Virus record (IMG/VR): IMGVR_UViG_2933088407_000001
Span: 24,120-88,119 of that record
Length of the DNA stretch: 64,000 nt
Reading direction: 5' to 3' (one strand)
Source of the DNA: a virus
Lineage: Duplodnaviria > Caudoviricetes
The translations under genes and the position numbers were made by a program. Position 1 is the stretch's first letter. Every line of letters begins with the position of its first letter. The notes beneath the pieces were generated by a model. It made no database searches, had not been told where the DNA came from, and was given only the letters and a program-made list of their open reading frames with translations. Positions 2,255 to 64,000 of this stretch are shown in pieces.

Positions 2255-2689
2255 ATGCAGAAGTCCTACGGCATTGAAGCCGCCCGCGCCCAGCTCGGCG
2301 AAATCGCCGACTACGTCCGCACCAGCGGCGAAACCATCGCCTTGACCCGGCACGGCCGACCCATCGCAGTCATCGGTCCCACCAAGGCCGTAAAGCCGGC
2401 CGGCGGCGTGGAGGCCACGTTGTACTACCCGCACACTGAGCGAACCTGCGTCCTACCCGCCCTCCCCCGAACCGGCGAAGAGCTCGTCCAAGACGAGGAA
2501 TTGAGCCCGACTGAGAGCACCGAAACGAGGTGGATCATTACCGAAGTGCAGTGGCACCTGGCCGTCGACAGCTCACCCTCAGTCGGTATCACCCTCGACC
2601 CGGCAGACGACCACACGCGCCAGATCATGAAGCAGCAGGAAGCAGACCGCATCGCAGCCGCACGCGCCCGCCGTACCACCGAGCAGTGA
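2255..2689 (+). CDS. Phd/YefM-type DNA-binding domain protein (orphan antitoxin-like)
   Basis: N-terminus YGIEAARAQLGEIADYV..GETIALTRHGRPIAVI is a typical Phd/YefM fold. TAAGGT -10 lies 6 nt before the ATG (leaderless). Confidence 0.75.
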   Translation: MQKSYGIEAARAQLGEIADYVRTSGETIALTRHGRPIAVIGPTKAVKPAGGVEATLYYPHTERTCVLPALPRTGEELVQDEELSPTESTETRWIITEVQWHLAVDSSPSVGITLDPADDHTRQIMKQQEADRIAAARARRTTEQ

Positions 2690-5336: not shown

Positions 5337-5554
5337 CTCGGGGTCCCCTCGATGGCCTCGCGGAACATCTCCGCAAAGTGGTTCCGCTCCCTCAGCCTGC
5401 GCAGCTTATTGGTGGCCTCGTCGACCTCTGGGCGACGCTCCTCAGCCTCAAGCCGGGCGGCCTGCGCGCGCTCAACCGCGCGCTGGGCCGCCTTCTGGCC
5501 GGGGGTGGGGCGCCCCCTCCGCCTAACGCAGAGGAGCCTCGTCCATCGGATCAC
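5333..5554 (-). CDS. small coiled-coil lysis-region protein
   Basis: Overlaps its neighbours; ends ERNHFAEMFREAI, typical of actinophage lysis cassettes. Confidence 0.6.
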   Translation of the reverse strand: MIRWTRLLCVRRRGRPTPGQKAAQRAVERAQAARLEAEERRPEVDEATNKLRRLRERNHFAEMFREAIEGTPR

Positions 5555-8620: not shown

Positions 8621-10498
8621 TCAGGCGATGCGGGTGACGCGCATCCACGAGCCGACGGCCATGCGGTTGAAGGTGGTGGACGACGTGGACTGTGCCCAAC
8701 CGAGGGCGAGGGTTCCGGCGCTGGTGGTGGTGACGGTGCCCGTTTCGATGGCGTAGCAGACGTTGGTGTTCACGTTGCGGCGGCCGTAGGTGATGGTGGT
8801 GCCGAAGTTGTGTGCGCCGCTCCTCATGGTGATGCCGTCGCCGTTGTTGTTGCCCGCGGTGGCTTCAGTCGCGGCCGAGGACGGGCCCATGGCGCCCTTG
8901 AGGCCGGTAGCGCCGGTGGGCACCAGCCACTCCGTCACCGTGAGAGCGAACGTACTGCCGCCGGTGAACAGGTGGAACTCCACGATGTAGGTGGCGTTCG
9001 CGAGGAGCGACACCGTCAGGTGTGGGTCTGCGGTCCGGCTGGTGGTGCTCGTGCGGTCGGTGTTCGCCGGCTTGCTGACCAGGTACGGGGTGTTCTGGGC
9101 CATGACGCTGCCCGTGACGGAGAGGCCGGACGAGGTGAACGTGTGATCGCTGCCGTTAGCGTTTACGTTCACGTAGTCGCCGGTGACGTAGACGGAGCTG
9201 TGCTTGCCGGTACCGGTGCCGTCCTGGACGTACATGTTCATGTACGAGGCGCCAGCGGTGGAAGAGCCGGAGGCGGCGTCGATCGCGGCGAAACCGATCT
9301 CGCTCGTGGCCGTTGGGGCGTTCGTTGCCACGGCGAAGCGGCCGGGGAAGGATCCGGCTTTCGGTGATCCGAGGGAGATGACGGCTTGGCTGTAGGCGCC
9401 GCTGGAGTCCTGGGCGACGATCGGCGCCCCGAGAGCTGTGGTGGGCTGCGCCGGGACACCCACGGTGGGGCCGGCGTTGAGCCCGGCGGGGAAGAGCTCA
9501 CCGGTGACGCCGGAGTACAGGAGCATCGTCGGCCGGTTCACCATGCCGGCGGGCGGGGTGGGGGTGACCACGACGCGGGAGCCGGTGGTGTTGGTTTGGA
9601 GGACGCCGCCGGTGACGGTGGCGCCGGTGATGTCGGTGCCGTTGATGGTGCCGCCGGTGATGGTCTTGCCGGTGATGGCGTCGGCCTTGATGGCGGTGGC
9701 GTCGACGCTGCCTGCGGCGAGCTTGGCGGTGGTGACGGCGTTGGCGTCGAGCTTGTCGGTGGTGATGGCGAGGGCTGCCACCTTCGCTGCGGTGACGGCC
9801 TCGGCGGCGAGCTTGTCGGTAAGGATGGCGCCGGCGGCTATCTGTCCGGCGAGGATCGCCCCGGCCACGATCTTCTGCGTGGTGACGGCGTCGTCGGTGA
9901 TTTCGGTGGTGCCGACGGCCCCGGCGGCGATTTTCGCGGCGGTCACGGCGTCGGCCGCGAGCTTCGCCTCGGTGACGATGCCGTCGAGGATGTCGGACGC
10001 GACGACCGGTGTCGGCCCGTACGGGCCGGCCTCGGTGGAGGGGGTTGAGGCGGCGCCGGACGTGTTGCGGGCTAGCAGTTGTACGTACACCGGGTCGTCC
10101 GTCACTACGACGACGGTGGCGCCCTGCGCCGTCTCGATCGTGGACTGTAGCGTCGCCGCGGTCGCCGTGAAGCCGCTGCTGGTGGAGGCGTGGACCTCGA
10201 TCCGGGCCCAGTCCAGGGGGATCACCGCGGCGTCGGCGAACTGGCCGTCCCACGAAACGGTGACGCCGCCCAGCACGGAGGCGACGACCGGGGTGGACGG
10301 GGCCGGGGGCGGGGGTCCGTTGACGACCTGGATGCCGGAGGTGCCGTCGGCCTGCTGCCCGACGATCGCGCGCAGGCCACCAAAGTCGTCGCGGGCCACG
10401 AGGGCGGTTCCGTCGAGGGAGGCTGACGAGAGGCGAGAGGCGCGTTCGACCTTCTTGATGCGGGCTTCCAGGATGGCGAGCTGGGCTCCGATGTCCAT
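8621..10498 (-). CDS. minor tail / tail fibre protein
   Basis: Starts MDIGAQLA (TGATG coupling). FnIII-like region and decapeptide AVTxxKIA repeats typical of actinophage fibres. Confidence 0.8.
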   Translation of the reverse strand: MDIGAQLAILEARIKKVERASRLSSASLDGTALVARDDFGGLRAIVGQQADGTSGIQVVNGPPPPAPSTPVVASVLGGVTVSWDGQFADAAVIPLDWARIEVHASTSSGFTATAATLQSTIETAQGATVVVVTDDPVYVQLLARNTSGAASTPSTEAGPYGPTPVVASDILDGIVTEAKLAADAVTAAKIAAGAVGTTEITDDAVTTQKIVAGAILAGQIAAGAILTDKLAAEAVTAAKVAALAITTDKLDANAVTTAKLAAGSVDATAIKADAITGKTITGGTINGTDITGATVTGGVLQTNTTGSRVVVTPTPPAGMVNRPTMLLYSGVTGELFPAGLNAGPTVGVPAQPTTALGAPIVAQDSSGAYSQAVISLGSPKAGSFPGRFAVATNAPTATSEIGFAAIDAASGSSTAGASYMNMYVQDGTGTGKHSSVYVTGDYVNVNANGSDHTFTSSGLSVTGSVMAQNTPYLVSKPANTDRTSTTSRTADPHLTVSLLANATYIVEFHLFTGGSTFALTVTEWLVPTGATGLKGAMGPSSAATEATAGNNNGDGITMRSGAHNFGTTITYGRRNVNTNVCYAIETGTVTTTSAGTLALGWAQSTSSTTFNRMAVGSWMRVTRIA

Positions 10499-58644: not shown

Positions 58645-59517
58645 TTGGACGCCACGTCCCTCCAAACCCTGCTCGTCAAGCACCGCAGCCTCATCGACCC
58701 CGAAGTCCACGGCCTGTCCCGCCCCACCCGGCAAGGCCGCCGCGCACCAGGGCTCTCGCAGCAGCAGATGGACGGACTCCTCCACCGCACCGGCGGCACC
58801 TACGCCCGCCTCGAAGCCGGCCGCCACAAGAACCCGTCCATAGAACTCCTCCGCGACGTCGCCCTCATCCTCGTCATGTCCGAGCAGGAGTGGGTGGCTC
58901 TGTGCCGCTACGCGCGCGGCGAAGACCCGCCCTCAGCTCTCCGCCCCCGCTCAGGCAAGATCGTGCCCGGGATGTGGAAGGACGCCGTCGACGGCATCTC
59001 CCACATGGCGTACGTGACGGACTGCTCCTACAACCTGCTGTGCCACAACCAGGCGTTCGCCGGCCTGTTCCCCGAGACGGGCCCGCCGGGCAACATGATG
59101 CGGGGCATGCTCCTCGAGGACACGTTCCGCGGCACCCTCCCCGACCCCAGGCGCGGCAGCACCGCCCGGCCAGGCATCCTCACCGACTGGGCCACCGTCT
59201 GGGCCCCCTACGTCCTGCCCCAGCTCCTCGCCGCCCGCGCGCTGATGCCCGACGACCCGATCCTCAAGGCCATTGAGCACGACGTCCGCGACGACCCCCG
59301 CACCGGACCCATCTACGCATCCGGCACCGCCACCCAGGTCCACCCCGACGGCAACGAACGCCCCCTGCTGCACCCGACGCTGGGCCCGAGCTGGGTCAAC
59401 ATCTGCGCCGCGGGCCCGCTGTCGTCTCCGAACTCACGCCTCATGATCGTGATGGTGTACCCGGGCGAAGAGCAATCCCACGGCCGGCTCCCGCACCTTT
59501 ACGCCAAGGTGTCGTGA
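58645..59517 (+). CDS. MmyB-family XRE regulator with C-terminal PAS-like ligand-binding domain
   Basis: GRRAPGLSQQQM..YARLEAG HTH; AYVTDCSYNLLCHNQAFAGLF..NMMR..L..DW..W..LHPTLG MLTR_LBD pattern. TTG start after GGGAG. Confidence 0.88.
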   Translation: MDATSLQTLLVKHRSLIDPEVHGLSRPTRQGRRAPGLSQQQMDGLLHRTGGTYARLEAGRHKNPSIELLRDVALILVMSEQEWVALCRYARGEDPPSALRPRSGKIVPGMWKDAVDGISHMAYVTDCSYNLLCHNQAFAGLFPETGPPGNMMRGMLLEDTFRGTLPDPRRGSTARPGILTDWATVWAPYVLPQLLAARALMPDDPILKAIEHDVRDDPRTGPIYASGTATQVHPDGNERPLLHPTLGPSWVNICAAGPLSSPNSRLMIVMVYPGEEQSHGRLPHLYAKVS

Positions 59518-59603
59518 ACCTGCAACCTCGCCAAGGGCATTCCGTATCGTTTTCAACCGTAGGGTAAAACCCTCGCTAAACACATGATGCGGAGTGCCCC
59601 CTG

Positions 59604-60653
59604 ATGCCCACTCACGTCTCACGCCCCGCAATAGCCAAGGCCAAGCACCTGGCCACCGCTGATCAAACCTGCGACAACATCACCCTGCACCACGCGGATC
59701 ACCCCAAACTGGGCACCGCGCTGCGCCTGGTCCGCAACACGGGCGTCGAGACCCGCTACCTCCACCACCCCCTCGACTCCGAGCAGATCTCCGGCAGCCT
59801 CGGCATCGCCGACCGCAACCAGCAGGCATGGAACGACGCCGCCACCCTCGCCGAGAAGGCCGCGACACGGGCCCTCGAGAACGCCGGCCTCCGGCCACAC
59901 GACATCGACGCCATCGTCACCAGCAACACCACCAGCTGGGCGAGCCCAGGCCTCGACGTCCACCTCGTCGAAACCCTCCGCCTCCGCCCCGACGTCCGGC
60001 GTATCGCCCTCGCCACCGTCGGCTGTATCGGCGGCGCCCAGGCCCTCACCCGCGCCGCGGACCTCGTTGCGGCGCACCCGGGTAGCCGCGTCCTCGTCGT
60101 CGTGTCCGAGGCGCTGTCCACGATCTATCATCACGCGGACAGCGCGCTGGAGTCGATGATCTACAAGGCTCTGTTCGGCGACTCCGCCGGCGCCTGCGTC
60201 GTCTCCGCCGACCAGCTCACAACCGGTATGCGCATCGAAGACACCTGGGAATACCTCCTCCCCAACTCCCGCGACCGCTACTGGGGTCGCATCGACGAGC
60301 TGGGCATTCACTTCGACTCCACCCGCGCCGCCACCGAGGCACCAGGGGACGCTATGCCCGCCCTGGTGGAGTGGCTGAAGGGCCGCGACGCCACCAACCC
60401 GGACTGGACAGTCGTCCACGCCGGCGGGCCCGCCATCCTCACCGCGGCACAGCAAGGCCTCGACCTCACCGACACCCAGCTCGCCCACTCCCGGGCCAGC
60501 CTCCGCGAGGTCGGCAACCTCGGCGGTATCAGCGTCCTGGACGTCCTCGCCCGCACGTACGCCAGCCCACCCGCCAACCGCGACAAGGGCGTGATGCTGG
60601 CCTACGGGCCCGGGTTCACCACCGCCGCACTCACCGGCACCTGGACCGCCTGA
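59604..60653 (+). CDS. type III polyketide synthase (RppA/PhlD-like)
   Basis: Catalytic Cys-His-Asn in TVGCIGG, VHAGG, VGNLG; also NTGVETRY, ALFGD and AYGPGFT. Confidence 0.92.
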   Translation: MPTHVSRPAIAKAKHLATADQTCDNITLHHADHPKLGTALRLVRNTGVETRYLHHPLDSEQISGSLGIADRNQQAWNDAATLAEKAATRALENAGLRPHDIDAIVTSNTTSWASPGLDVHLVETLRLRPDVRRIALATVGCIGGAQALTRAADLVAAHPGSRVLVVVSEALSTIYHHADSALESMIYKALFGDSAGACVVSADQLTTGMRIEDTWEYLLPNSRDRYWGRIDELGIHFDSTRAATEAPGDAMPALVEWLKGRDATNPDWTVVHAGGPAILTAAQQGLDLTDTQLAHSRASLREVGNLGGISVLDVLARTYASPPANRDKGVMLAYGPGFTTAALTGTWTA

Positions 60654-61914: not shown

Positions 61915-63351
61915 ATGGGAGCCCTGAATGGAACCCCAGAACAGCACGGTCACGCGGGCTTCCCTCACCCCACGGACCGGCTGGCCGGGCGTCTCGTAGA
62001 CCACCTCGCGCGCCGCATAGGCCACCAAGCCGCAGTGTCCTGGGTCCACGCGGGAGCCGTGCTGTGGTGGACCAACTCGCACAATCTGTTTCCCGGCGCT
62101 ACACCAGCGTCAACCGCAGACGGTATACGCGAAGGCGTCAAACGCCTCGCGGAAGCACACCCATCTCTCAATGGGTTCGCCGACCCGCAACAAACCGCCC
62201 TATGGAACGCAGGCATCGAAGACACTGAGGCGCAAGCGATCCACGAACTGTGGGAAAAACACCCTCCAGCGGACCCTCCATGCAGGCCACATGGCTACCT
62301 ACTCGGCAACGCCTACCAGGCCCTGTCCGAGGAGTCCCGCAAGCACCGCGCACTGGCCCAAACCCCGCGCTACATCACCGACCTGCTCCTGGACCTGGCA
62401 TTCCACCCTGCCGCAGCCCGCTGGGGCATGGACAGCTTCCAGGCCATCGACCCTTCATGCGGAACAGGTCACATCCTGTACGAGATGCTGGCCGCTGCGC
62501 AGGCGTGGACGCCTGGCGGACGCCGAACCGAGCGTCTCATGCAGCCCGGCGAGCGGCTGGAGCGTGCCCTCCACGTGGTGCACGGGGTGGACCTGGACCC
62601 GTATGCGGTGCTGATAGCCAGGCTGCGGCTGGTCGCCGCGGCCACCCTGTGGCTGAGTGCGAATCGCGTTAACCATCCGACGCTGCCGGACCGTATGCCC
62701 GATGATTGGCCGGTCAACGTGACCGCAGCGGACACCCTTCTGGACCGGACCGAGCCCCTGCTGGAGCGCGGCCGATATCACGTCGTGGTGGGCAATCCGC
62801 CATACGTGACACCGAAGACCGCTGAGCAGCGAGATGCGGTGCGTGCCTCGTACCCACAGGTGTGCCATATGAAGTACGCCCTGTCGTTGCCGTTCCACCA
62901 GCTAATGACTGACCTCCTCGTCCCGGGCGGGTGGTGCGCACAGCTGACCGCAAACTCCTTCATGAAGCGGGAGTTCGGTCGGCGATTCGTTGAGGAGTAC
63001 CTGCCGCGACAGGACCTGCGCTGGGTGATCGACACGGCCGGCGCCTACATTCCCGGCCACGGAACCCCAACGGTGATCCTCGTCCACCGCAACCAAGCAC
63101 CGGTCGGCGACACCGTATCTGCGGTACTCGGTATCCGCGGCGAGCCGGCAAAGCCAGAGGACCCCTCACGCGGCGTGGTGTGGCAGAGCATCGCCAGCAA
63201 GGTACGGGAGAAGCTGGCGTTTCAGAGACTGGCGGCCGCCGCAGAGCGCGAGATAGGGCCAGAGCCAAAGTCCCCGCCAGTCATCGAGCCGAGCGTGAAG
63301 GTCGTGAAACAGCTGTCTCTGTTCGGCGAATCACTGGCAGACGCAGCCTGA
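61915..63351 (+). CDS. N6-adenine DNA methyltransferase, truncated BREX-2 PglX-like
   Basis: Motif I IDPSCGTGHIL, motif IV VVGNPPY, and PglX-type strings TANSFMKREFG, IDTAGAYIPGHGTPTVIL, RGEP..PEDP..G.VW. Only 478 aa. Confidence 0.85.
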   Translation: MGALNGTPEQHGHAGFPHPTDRLAGRLVDHLARRIGHQAAVSWVHAGAVLWWTNSHNLFPGATPASTADGIREGVKRLAEAHPSLNGFADPQQTALWNAGIEDTEAQAIHELWEKHPPADPPCRPHGYLLGNAYQALSEESRKHRALAQTPRYITDLLLDLAFHPAAARWGMDSFQAIDPSCGTGHILYEMLAAAQAWTPGGRRTERLMQPGERLERALHVVHGVDLDPYAVLIARLRLVAAATLWLSANRVNHPTLPDRMPDDWPVNVTAADTLLDRTEPLLERGRYHVVVGNPPYVTPKTAEQRDAVRASYPQVCHMKYALSLPFHQLMTDLLVPGGWCAQLTANSFMKREFGRRFVEEYLPRQDLRWVIDTAGAYIPGHGTPTVILVHRNQAPVGDTVSAVLGIRGEPAKPEDPSRGVVWQSIASKVREKLAFQRLAAAAEREIGPEPKSPPVIEPSVKVVKQLSLFGESLADAA

Positions 63352-63362
63352 TCGACAGACCT

Positions 63363-63435
63363 GCCCGGGTGGCGCAGCGGCAGACGCGACCGCCTTAAAA
63401 GCGGACCCCCGCGGGTTCGAATCCCGCCCCGGGCA
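63363..63435 (+). tRNA. tRNA-Leu(UAA)-like (reads UUA; bldA-type anticodon) with short variable loop
   Basis: Acceptor GCCCGGG/CCCGGGC with A73; Leu-like D arm GCG..GGCAGA.CGC; anticodon stem CCGC/GCGG with loop CT-TAA-AA; T arm GCGGG-TTCGAAT-CCCGC. Confidence 0.85.
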
Positions 63436-63462
63436 CCCACCACCCCGCCCCAGGAGGACACC

Positions 63463-64000
63463 TTGAGCCTCAACCCCATCACCGAAATCCTCCGACACGG
63501 CTACTCCCTCGACGACCTCGACCGCCTCACCCGCACCGCCCTAGTCATCGACCGCTGGCGCAACGACATCAACACCGCAGACCGATACGCCGCCATCCAC
63601 TTCGCCATCACCGAACAGATCCTCACCGCGGACCAGCCGCCCGCCAGCGGCGACCTGATCGCCTGCGGCAGGCAAGCAGCCAACCGCTACGTCCGCACCC
63701 AGATGCACCACCACGGCTACGACCAACGCGACGCAGCCGCCGGCCCCCGAGCACTGCCCGGATATCAGCGGTACTGGCAGCAATCCGGCCACACCCCCTG
63801 GGACGAACGCCTAGTGGAGTCCCTAACCCTCGCGCAGATCTGGCCGCACCTCACCCTCGCCCAGCAGCAAGCCGTCATGGCCCTCGCTCTCACCGGCGAC
63901 CACCAGGAAGCCGCCGACTCCCTAGGACTGACGCTGACCGCGTTCTCCGGGCGGCTCAAGAAGGCCCGCGGCCGGGTATTCGCGCTCTGGTACGAGCACG
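63463..64000 (+). CDS. sigma-70 region-4-like DNA-binding protein, partial
   Basis: Read manually: TTG after CAGGAGG, ...IWPHLTLAQQQAVMALALTGDHQEAADSLGLTLTAFSGRLKKARGRV (sigma-4 HTH pattern). Runs off the right edge. Confidence 0.65.
   Translation, partial: MSLNPITEILRHGYSLDDLDRLTRTALVIDRWRNDINTADRYAAIHFAITEQILTADQPPASGDLIACGRQAANRYVRTQMHHHGYDQRDAAAGPRALPGYQRYWQQSGHTPWDERLVESLTLAQIWPHLTLAQQQAVMALALTGDHQEAADSLGLTLTAFSGRLKKARGRVFALWYEH

Follow-up and report, generated by a model that had tools for sequence, protein, structure and literature searches.

Streptomyces is the main source of antibiotics, and decoding of UUA, the rarest codon of the Streptomyces host, by the bldA tRNA is one of its classic developmental checkpoints. 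A tRNA gene with the anticodon UAA on a Streptomyces phage raises the question of whether such a tRNA works and of which genes, those of the phage or those of its host, it would serve. We analyzed a stretch of 64,000 nucleotides (referred to as the window) that contains such a gene, together with the remainder of the phage genome, related elements and the host genome.

The phage contig (C25 of a Streptomyces isolate assembly, L204, G006) comprises 88,119 bases with a terminal overlap of 95 bases, so that the phage genome is circular, with a length of 88,024 bases and a G+C content of 69%. An earlier note, made from the letters of the window, had taken the DNA for a phage element, an assignment supported by the siphophage genes for a tape measure protein, a large terminase and a portal on the circular 88-kb contig, which also encodes a holin and a tyrosine integrase. 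The circular contig in an isolate assembly, taken together with the tyrosine integrase, indicates that the element is probably temperate or plasmid-like. Other Streptomyces assemblies contain similar contigs of 86-92 kb. An exact 95-base end overlap was found in the phage contig and in three relatives (G411:C28, G407:C30 and G002; 86-91 kb), so these four contigs were assembled as circles apart from the chromosome, and the phage family may persist as plasmid-like prophages or may have been replicating in the cultures. A megablast search of window positions 62000-64000 against cultured phages returned zero matches. Upstream of the tRNA lies an accessory region with genes of the secondary-metabolism type, in which an MmyB-like regulator (HTH_31 and MLTR_LBD) adjoins a type III polyketide synthase (chalcone/stilbene synthase domains) at window positions 58645-60653 (+).

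The tRNA gene was recognized by Rfam model RF00005 over the full model (positions 1-71) with 52.6 bits (gathering score 29; E = 1.9e-8). ARAGORN, which had been named earlier as a check, called a single tRNA in the 64-kb window, a tRNA-Leu(taa) at 63362-63439 (+) with one extra T-A pair at the acceptor end. It is also the sole tRNA of the whole phage genome that passes Rfam; a 99-nt "tRNA-Ala(ggc)" called by ARAGORN at genome positions 9554-9652 lies inside a coding region, has no Rfam match and was discarded as a false positive. The gene and its neighbors are listed in the table.

Table. Features of the tRNA locus and of the TTA-bearing gene (window coordinates unless stated otherwise).
Feature	Position	Strand	Basis
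478-aa N6-adenine DNA methyltransferase, PglX / type IIG-like	61915..63351	+	Pfam, PADLOC
11-nt spacer, methyltransferase stop codon to tRNA position 1	63352..63362	+	sequence
Type I tRNA-Leu, anticodon UAA, 5-nt variable loop	63363..63435	+	Rfam, ARAGORN, covariation
27-nt spacer 3' of the tRNA, begins CCCACCA; AGGAGG at 63452-63457, 5 nt before the next start	63436..63462	+	sequence
264-aa ORF, TTG start, 5' part in the window, runs round the circle (full L320:5760-6554)	63463..64000	+	ORF
NERD-domain gene, TTA codon 200 of 203	genome 736-1347 (= L320:6938-7549), outside the window	-	Pfam, PHROG

The gene folds into a cloverleaf with an acceptor stem of 7 bp (GCCCGGG/CCCGGGC), a D stem of three pairs in which C13:A22 is unpaired, G18 and G19 in the D loop, and a T loop (UUCGAAU) that contains U54-A58. 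U8 and A14 are both present and are invariant in all 10 aligned homologues. The anticodon loop CUUAAAA yields the anticodon UAA, the anticodon stem contains an A27:A43 mismatch, and the variable region consists of five nucleotides (CCCCC) including C48. Since A73 is followed by CCCACCA, no CCA is encoded at positions 74-76: the gene has C at 74 and 75 and C instead of A at 76, and trimming and the addition of CCA would shape the mature 3' end. All structural features that the earlier note had read from the letters (the cloverleaf, UAA, A73, CCCCC, the A-A mismatch and the lack of CCA) were recovered by ARAGORN, Rfam and inspection of the sequence, and its prediction of a UUA decoder is consistent with the CUUAAAA loop.

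Comparison of 10 related tRNAs showed that 91.4% of the cells were paired and that 13 of the 21 pairs had changed on both sides, a result reached by none of 500 shuffles. Judged by this alignment, the cloverleaf is more than chance, and its stems are kept by compensatory change. Positions 13:22 are unpaired in 9 of 9 homologues and positions 27:43 in 7 of 10, which marks C13:A22 and A27:A43 as family traits and not as decay. The UAA anticodon and the CUUAAAA loop are invariant across all nine phage or element homologues, while the stems co-vary. The minimum-free-energy fold differs from the cloverleaf (-37.5 vs -32.3 kcal/mol; z-score -1.97); the thermodynamic fold was given little weight since the tRNA is GC-rich.

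The short variable loop had led the earlier note to call the tRNA atypical and to doubt its leucine identity. However, Streptomyces itself possesses a tRNA-Leu of this form. According to Fan et al. (2019, PMC6614811), S. coelicolor has five tRNA-Leu, of which tRNA-Leu(CAA) is a native type I tRNA with a 5-nt variable loop, and a single LeuRS charges both tRNA-Leu types. For the charging of type I by LeuRS the same source reports that the length of the loop counts and not its bases, with at least 5 nt including nucleotide 48, that U8:A14 is important in Streptomyces, and that A73 is no identity element there while C74 is essential; a bldA tRNA with a short loop kept 14% efficiency. It further states, crediting Pettersson and Kirsebom (2011), that tRNA-Leu(CAA) recoded to UAA is able to replace bldA (PMC6614811). 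With the exception of the CCA tail, which has to be added, the phage tRNA carries the published LeuRS elements: U8:A14, five variable nucleotides with C48, G18G19 and U54-A58; the gene itself has a C at 74.

The host draft assembly gave 68 Rfam tRNA matches (53 distinct sequences), all of which were run through ARAGORN. Its sole CAA-anticodon tRNA found is a 76-nt type I tRNA-Leu(CAA) at G006:C7:183506-183580 (-); a type II CAA tRNA was not found among the 68 matches, which in a draft assembly means "not found" and not "absent". The type I CAA sequence pattern occurred in 10 of the 31 Streptomyces genomes sampled. The host bldA gene is intact (type II, 84 nt, G006:C17:43561-43642, with a 15-nt variable arm). 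The short loop is thus explained by known biology, because a native type I tRNA-Leu(CAA) exists and is charged by LeuRS; as the host has its own copy, the phage tRNA most likely works.

Global pairwise identity to the host tRNAs did not discriminate (many shared about 54 identical positions), and a domain-wise comparison was used instead. With the anticodon arm and the variable loop left out, the closest host tRNAs were Leu(GAG) and Leu(CAG), each with 41 of 51 positions, followed by bldA with 39/51. Leu isoacceptors being the best-matching host tRNAs, the Leu-type D arm reported earlier is right, and the D arm itself shares 16 of 19 positions with the host type II Leu tRNAs. However, Arg(CCG) tied with bldA at 39/51 and type I Leu(CAA) reached only 38/51, so ancestry from sequence alone is weak evidence.

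An alternative raised previously is that the tRNA is mischarged or poorly charged and disturbs host TTA genes, to which a decaying, non-functional gene may be added as a variant. The unpaired A27:A43 and C13:A22 and the missing CCA would fit such a state, but these unpaired positions are common to the homologues, about 46 of the 53 distinct host tRNA sequences (sequence ends read by eye) likewise lack an encoded CCA, and the tRNA family is conserved across elements. Alanine tRNAs are marked by G3:U70, SerRS uses the long variable arm, and most other synthetases read the anticodon, for which, by established knowledge, UAA suits none of them. The phage tRNA has neither G3:U70 nor a long arm and does have the known Leu elements, and we consider mischarging or decay highly improbable.

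The phage tRNA shares a Leu anticodon, the 5-nt variable loop, U8:A14, G18G19, A73 and a length of about 73-76 nt with the type I tRNA-Leu(CAA) of S. coelicolor and of the host, and it occurs in the same host genus. In contrast to that chromosomal tRNA, which has the anticodon CAA and the variable loop ACAGC or ACAGU, it is phage-borne and combines UAA with CCCCC; its D arm is nearer to the host type II Leu tRNAs (16/19) than to type I tRNA-Leu(CAA) (13/19). With host bldA it has in common the UAA anticodon, and hence the codon, and a nearly identical acceptor stem (GCCCGGA/UCCGGGC in bldA). However, bldA has a 15-nt variable arm instead of 5 nt and a CUUAAAC loop, is chromosomal (contig C17) and under developmental control, and has a single G in the D loop (PMC6614811), whereas the phage tRNA has both G18 and G19. 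The phage tRNA is not a bldA orthologue.

Short-armed, phage-encoded Leu tRNAs are also found in phages Tomas (NC_070781.1), which has an annotated 75-nt tRNA-Leu(taa) with the same UAA anticodon, and Comrade (NC_048728.1), which has a 75-nt tRNA-Leu(caa). Both tRNAs are only distantly like the one described here in sequence, and they lie in 6-kb stretches with four (Tomas) and three (Comrade) tRNA genes in phages of 129-134 kb, whereas the phage described here, with 88 kb and an integrase, has no other tRNA. The tRNA type is therefore already documented and in that respect ordinary. What is new is that it is the sole tRNA of its phage, that it stands 6-11 nt behind a PglX-like methyltransferase in four elements, and that the phage has one credible in-frame TTA, in a NERD-domain gene. 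The literature searched contained no report of a Streptomyces phage that encodes a UUA tRNA.

The distribution of such tRNAs was examined with a search pattern consisting of a UAA anticodon loop and a standard T arm at the spacing of type I tRNAs. This pattern matched more than 119 viral contigs. All 85 loci scanned by ARAGORN gave tRNA(taa) calls, 82 of them of 73-79 nt, a result that reflects abundance and not proportion because the short distance is built into the pattern. Among cultured phages, 76 records matched the host type I tRNA-Leu(CAA) (20 Streptomyces, 45 Mycobacterium), mostly annotated as tRNA-Leu, and blastn of the phage tRNA against cultured phages yielded matches of 76-81% at best, mostly to tRNA-Val. 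The short UAA form is rare in Streptomyces genomes, occurring in 4 of the 401 searched, this host among them; homologous tRNAs of 76-90% identity are present on other Streptomyces elements. No tRNA match was found in any of five related IMG/VR genomes. The UAA pattern was seen in one of five genomes that host related Streptomyces contigs, where it lies on G411:C28, itself a related phage contig, and in none of four host genomes of further relatives; an unrelated provirus (G416) has the pattern. Two of 24 viral records with a NERD gene carry a tRNA, one a tRNA-Glu(ctc) and one, in G425, a 76-nt tRNA-Leu(taa). Any tRNA carried by phages of this set is usually of the tRNA-Leu(UAA) type.

The gene directly upstream matches Pfam Eco57I (7.2e-15) and, in PADLOC, PglX (PDLC02529, 1.8e-99). 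The match lies within the 1189-position PglX profile, and the 478-aa methyltransferase is much shorter than this profile. Neither promoter-like nor terminator-like sites were found between 62800 and 64000 with a sigma-70-type consensus only, and because the tRNA has no promoter-like site of its own we infer that it derives from an operon transcript; this suggests co-transcription with the methyltransferase. Downstream, the 264-aa ORF had no Pfam or PHROG match at 1e-3 and a weak hint of HTH_31 (E = 0.02). On the related phage contig G411:C28 (L318), a tRNA that is 87% identical is likewise followed by a homologue of this ORF (tblastx, 38% over 98 aa). In L001, G416 and G425 the stop codon of a methyltransferase homologue precedes the tRNA by 6-9 nt, and these enzymes are 27-55% identical to that of the window. 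As the pairing has been kept among methyltransferases this divergent, the methyltransferase and the tRNA appear to form an old, mobile two-gene unit, and the position of the tRNA directly after them argues for its long-term retention. A short PglX-like methyltransferase (478-496 aa) followed within 6-11 nt by a tRNA-Leu(UAA) was observed in the window, L001, L319/L324 and L388. The methyltransferase ORFs of the window, L001, G416 and G425 contain no TTA. Pfam searches of the flanks of tRNA homologues in other Streptomyces genomes were uninformative.

The 6-11 nt spacing after the methyltransferase stop, conserved in four elements, and the lack of a promoter or terminator found for the tRNA itself could also be read as signs of a non-decoding role, in which the tRNA would assist the processing or stability of the methyltransferase transcript or be left over from an integration site. 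However, the anticodon and the CUUAAAA loop are invariant in all nine homologues while the stems co-vary. The gene is full length and no 3' fragment, the integrase is about 25 kb away, and elsewhere in the phage there is no block of bldA or another host tRNA longer than 17 nt. An att-site remnant, which had been put forward before as the finding that would deprive the tRNA of meaning, is excluded by the full length of the tRNA, its distance of about 25 kb from the integrase and the at most 17 nt (16 identical) that the phage has in common with any host tRNA. Non-decoding roles as a whole appear very unlikely. Integration into bldA itself was likewise rejected: the only hit, at window positions 2342-2358 (-), agrees with the variable and T arms of bldA in 16 of 17 positions, lies inside an ORF (2255-2689) and misses the 3' end of the tRNA. 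This match is situated about 200 bases from the integrase operon, nothing comparable was found in relatives, and it is probably due to chance.

The genome contains 147 TTA trinucleotides on both strands, all of which were screened by the composition of the reading frame, and one credible in-frame case was left. A codon-model gene caller found no in-frame TTA in the 101-102 called genes; such counts are lower bounds, because the caller misses genes with atypical codons, among them the NERD gene. One TTA in about 22,000 called codons of the phage is host-like avoidance, in agreement with the report that Streptomyces phages are usually without UUA (PMC10732093). Two further candidates were considered. 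The TTA at window position 2011, at the integrase, was rejected, being in a frame that is non-coding in composition and upstream of the real start, where an overlapping 95-aa ORF is coding-like. The TTA at window position 5406 belongs to a 398-aa ORF without support, which overlaps with a holin gene, supported by Pfam, on the opposite strand; a genuine codon there is unlikely. As far as can be judged, the earlier observation that the genes of the window have no in-frame TTA holds, and extending the count to the full element, which the note had advised, placed the one credible TTA outside the window, in the NERD-domain gene.

Relatives with the tRNA have 0 (+1), 5 and 3 TTA and those without it 2 and 2, no clear difference; five phage genomes together contain 12 TTA among 9788 Leu codons. 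With about one TTA, and similar counts with or without the tRNA, the tRNA is no supplement for bulk codon usage. This also bears on the suggestion, made in the earlier note, that the tRNA backs up a tRNA cut by a defence nuclease, and on the variant that it serves as a decoy for such a host tRNA during infection. Phage tRNAs counter anticodon nucleases in other hosts, and here the tRNA adjoins a probable counter-defence gene, the PglX-like methyltransferase. However, UUA is nearly unused by the phage (one credible codon) and also infrequent in the host (S. coelicolor has 145 such codons; PMC6614811), and no nuclease targeting tRNA-Leu(UAA) was found in the literature searched. Since bulk translation depends on UUA in neither phage nor host, the suggestion is weak; cleavage of the UUA reader would barely hinder the phage and leave little for a back-up to do, and we regard this role as extremely unlikely.

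The single TTA directs attention to the gene that contains it. Its product matches Pfam NERD (1.8e-10) and phrog_38277 (3.7e-47, residues 4-202). On the circle, the gene follows the tRNA at a distance of about 1.2 kb, is convergent to the tRNA operon and is preceded by a membrane protein gene (phrog_2470) with a 4-base overlap. Between the convergent units, the region of the 264-aa ORF and the NERD gene, a G+C-rich hairpin (GAGCCCCAC...GTGGGGCTC) at genome positions ~683-716 may be a two-way terminator. No converging gene has its stop codon at the TTA of the NERD gene. The closest relatives are without the tRNA and also use TTA for this C-terminal Leu of NERD, although codons next to it have changed; in other NERD homologues the TTA lies at different places, such as codon 14, behind a start that is conserved.

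Among 35 distinct NERD homologues from Streptomyces assemblies and viral contigs, 20 contain TTA, amounting to 21 TTA among 742 Leu codons in 8 different alignment columns, although these counts are non-independent because the sequences are related. In contrast, terminases from the same kind of phage, used as a control, have TTA in 0 of 38 distinct homologue segments (0 of 1620 Leu codons). TTA at 8 positions implies repeated gain or retention in the NERD family, and the pattern suggests that this family is selected to hold a TTA, that is, that the gene is gated by bldA. Given such selection, the gene would presumably be bldA-gated in the relatives without the tRNA. Most relatives lack the tRNA yet have TTA in the NERD gene, so the tRNA is dispensable for the lineage. 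The reverse combination also occurs: G425 has the tRNA and a NERD homologue without TTA, and G416 has the tRNA and no NERD homologue. With these two exceptions the link between tRNA and NERD is not general. No paper linking NERD genes with TTA was found in the literature searched.

A rare TTA in a Streptomyces phage gene has been read as a bldA-dependent regulatory device before: phage Hau3 has UUA codons in its terminase gene, and these were proposed to act as a sensor of the host growth stage (PMC10732093). In Hau3, however, the TTAs are in frame-breaking terminase inserts and were proposed to be bypassed (PMC10732093), whereas the phage described here has a single in-frame TTA in a NERD-domain gene, at a position that varies across homologues, and brings along its own decoder.

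We infer expression and processing of the tRNA, its leucylation, for which the type I tRNA-Leu(CAA) of the host and published kinetics (PMC6614811) speak, and its link to the NERD gene, and the following course of events appears probable. The tRNA would be transcribed with the upstream PglX-like methyltransferase gene and then excised from the transcript, a host enzyme would add CCA, and the host LeuRS, which natively serves type I tRNA-Leu, would charge it with leucine. The charged tRNA would read UUA independently of the developmentally controlled host bldA tRNA. As there is about one TTA in about 22,000 called codons, bulk translation has no need of the tRNA, and its likeliest direct client would be the single TTA-bearing gene of the phage, the NERD gene. 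Host TTA genes would be opened as well, either as a side effect or as a second purpose. On balance, we consider it likely that the phage carries a working type I tRNA-Leu(UAA) that reads UUA without bldA and has the TTA-bearing NERD gene as its likeliest direct client.

The earlier note had proposed that the element overrides the bldA checkpoint of the host. Such host-directed conversion, in which the lysogen would decode UUA at all stages, the checkpoint on adpA and pathway regulators would be lifted, and development and antibiotics would be altered to the benefit of the phage, may even be the main purpose of the tRNA. The phage is nearly without TTA of its own, its circular isolate contig and tyrosine integrase mark it as probably temperate or plasmid-like, and its accessory region holds the MmyB-like regulator and the type III polyketide synthase. 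The recoded tRNA-Leu(CAA) that can replace bldA (PMC6614811) and the UUA reported in adpA of many species (PMC10732093) indicate that a decoder of this type could act on the host. However, the host keeps an intact bldA and the tRNA is missing from most relatives, and we think it unlikely that conversion of the host is the main purpose.

A self-run switch would join the two possible clients. In the relatives, NERD would await bldA as a sensor of development; here, the methyltransferase-tRNA cassette would retime NERD and at the same time open the bldA regulon of the lysogen, which would make the tRNA a gene of lysogenic conversion. We put this forward tentatively, as a possibility on the doubtful side. 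Returning to the tRNA with the NERD gene as its likeliest direct client, the sequence comparisons are consistent with a tRNA that may release the NERD gene from control by bldA, and perhaps TTA genes of the host as well.

The tRNA is of interest as the only tRNA of a probably temperate phage, with a PglX-like methyltransferase fixed in front of it and, nearby, a member of a gene family in which its codon is retained. It would also provide a compact, naturally occurring means of expressing gene clusters that contain TTA. A mobile UUA decoder could shift the timing of sporulation and antibiotic production in the strains that carry it, and the contrast in TTA between NERD and terminase genes suggests that phages of this kind gate one gene by the rare-codon checkpoint of their host.
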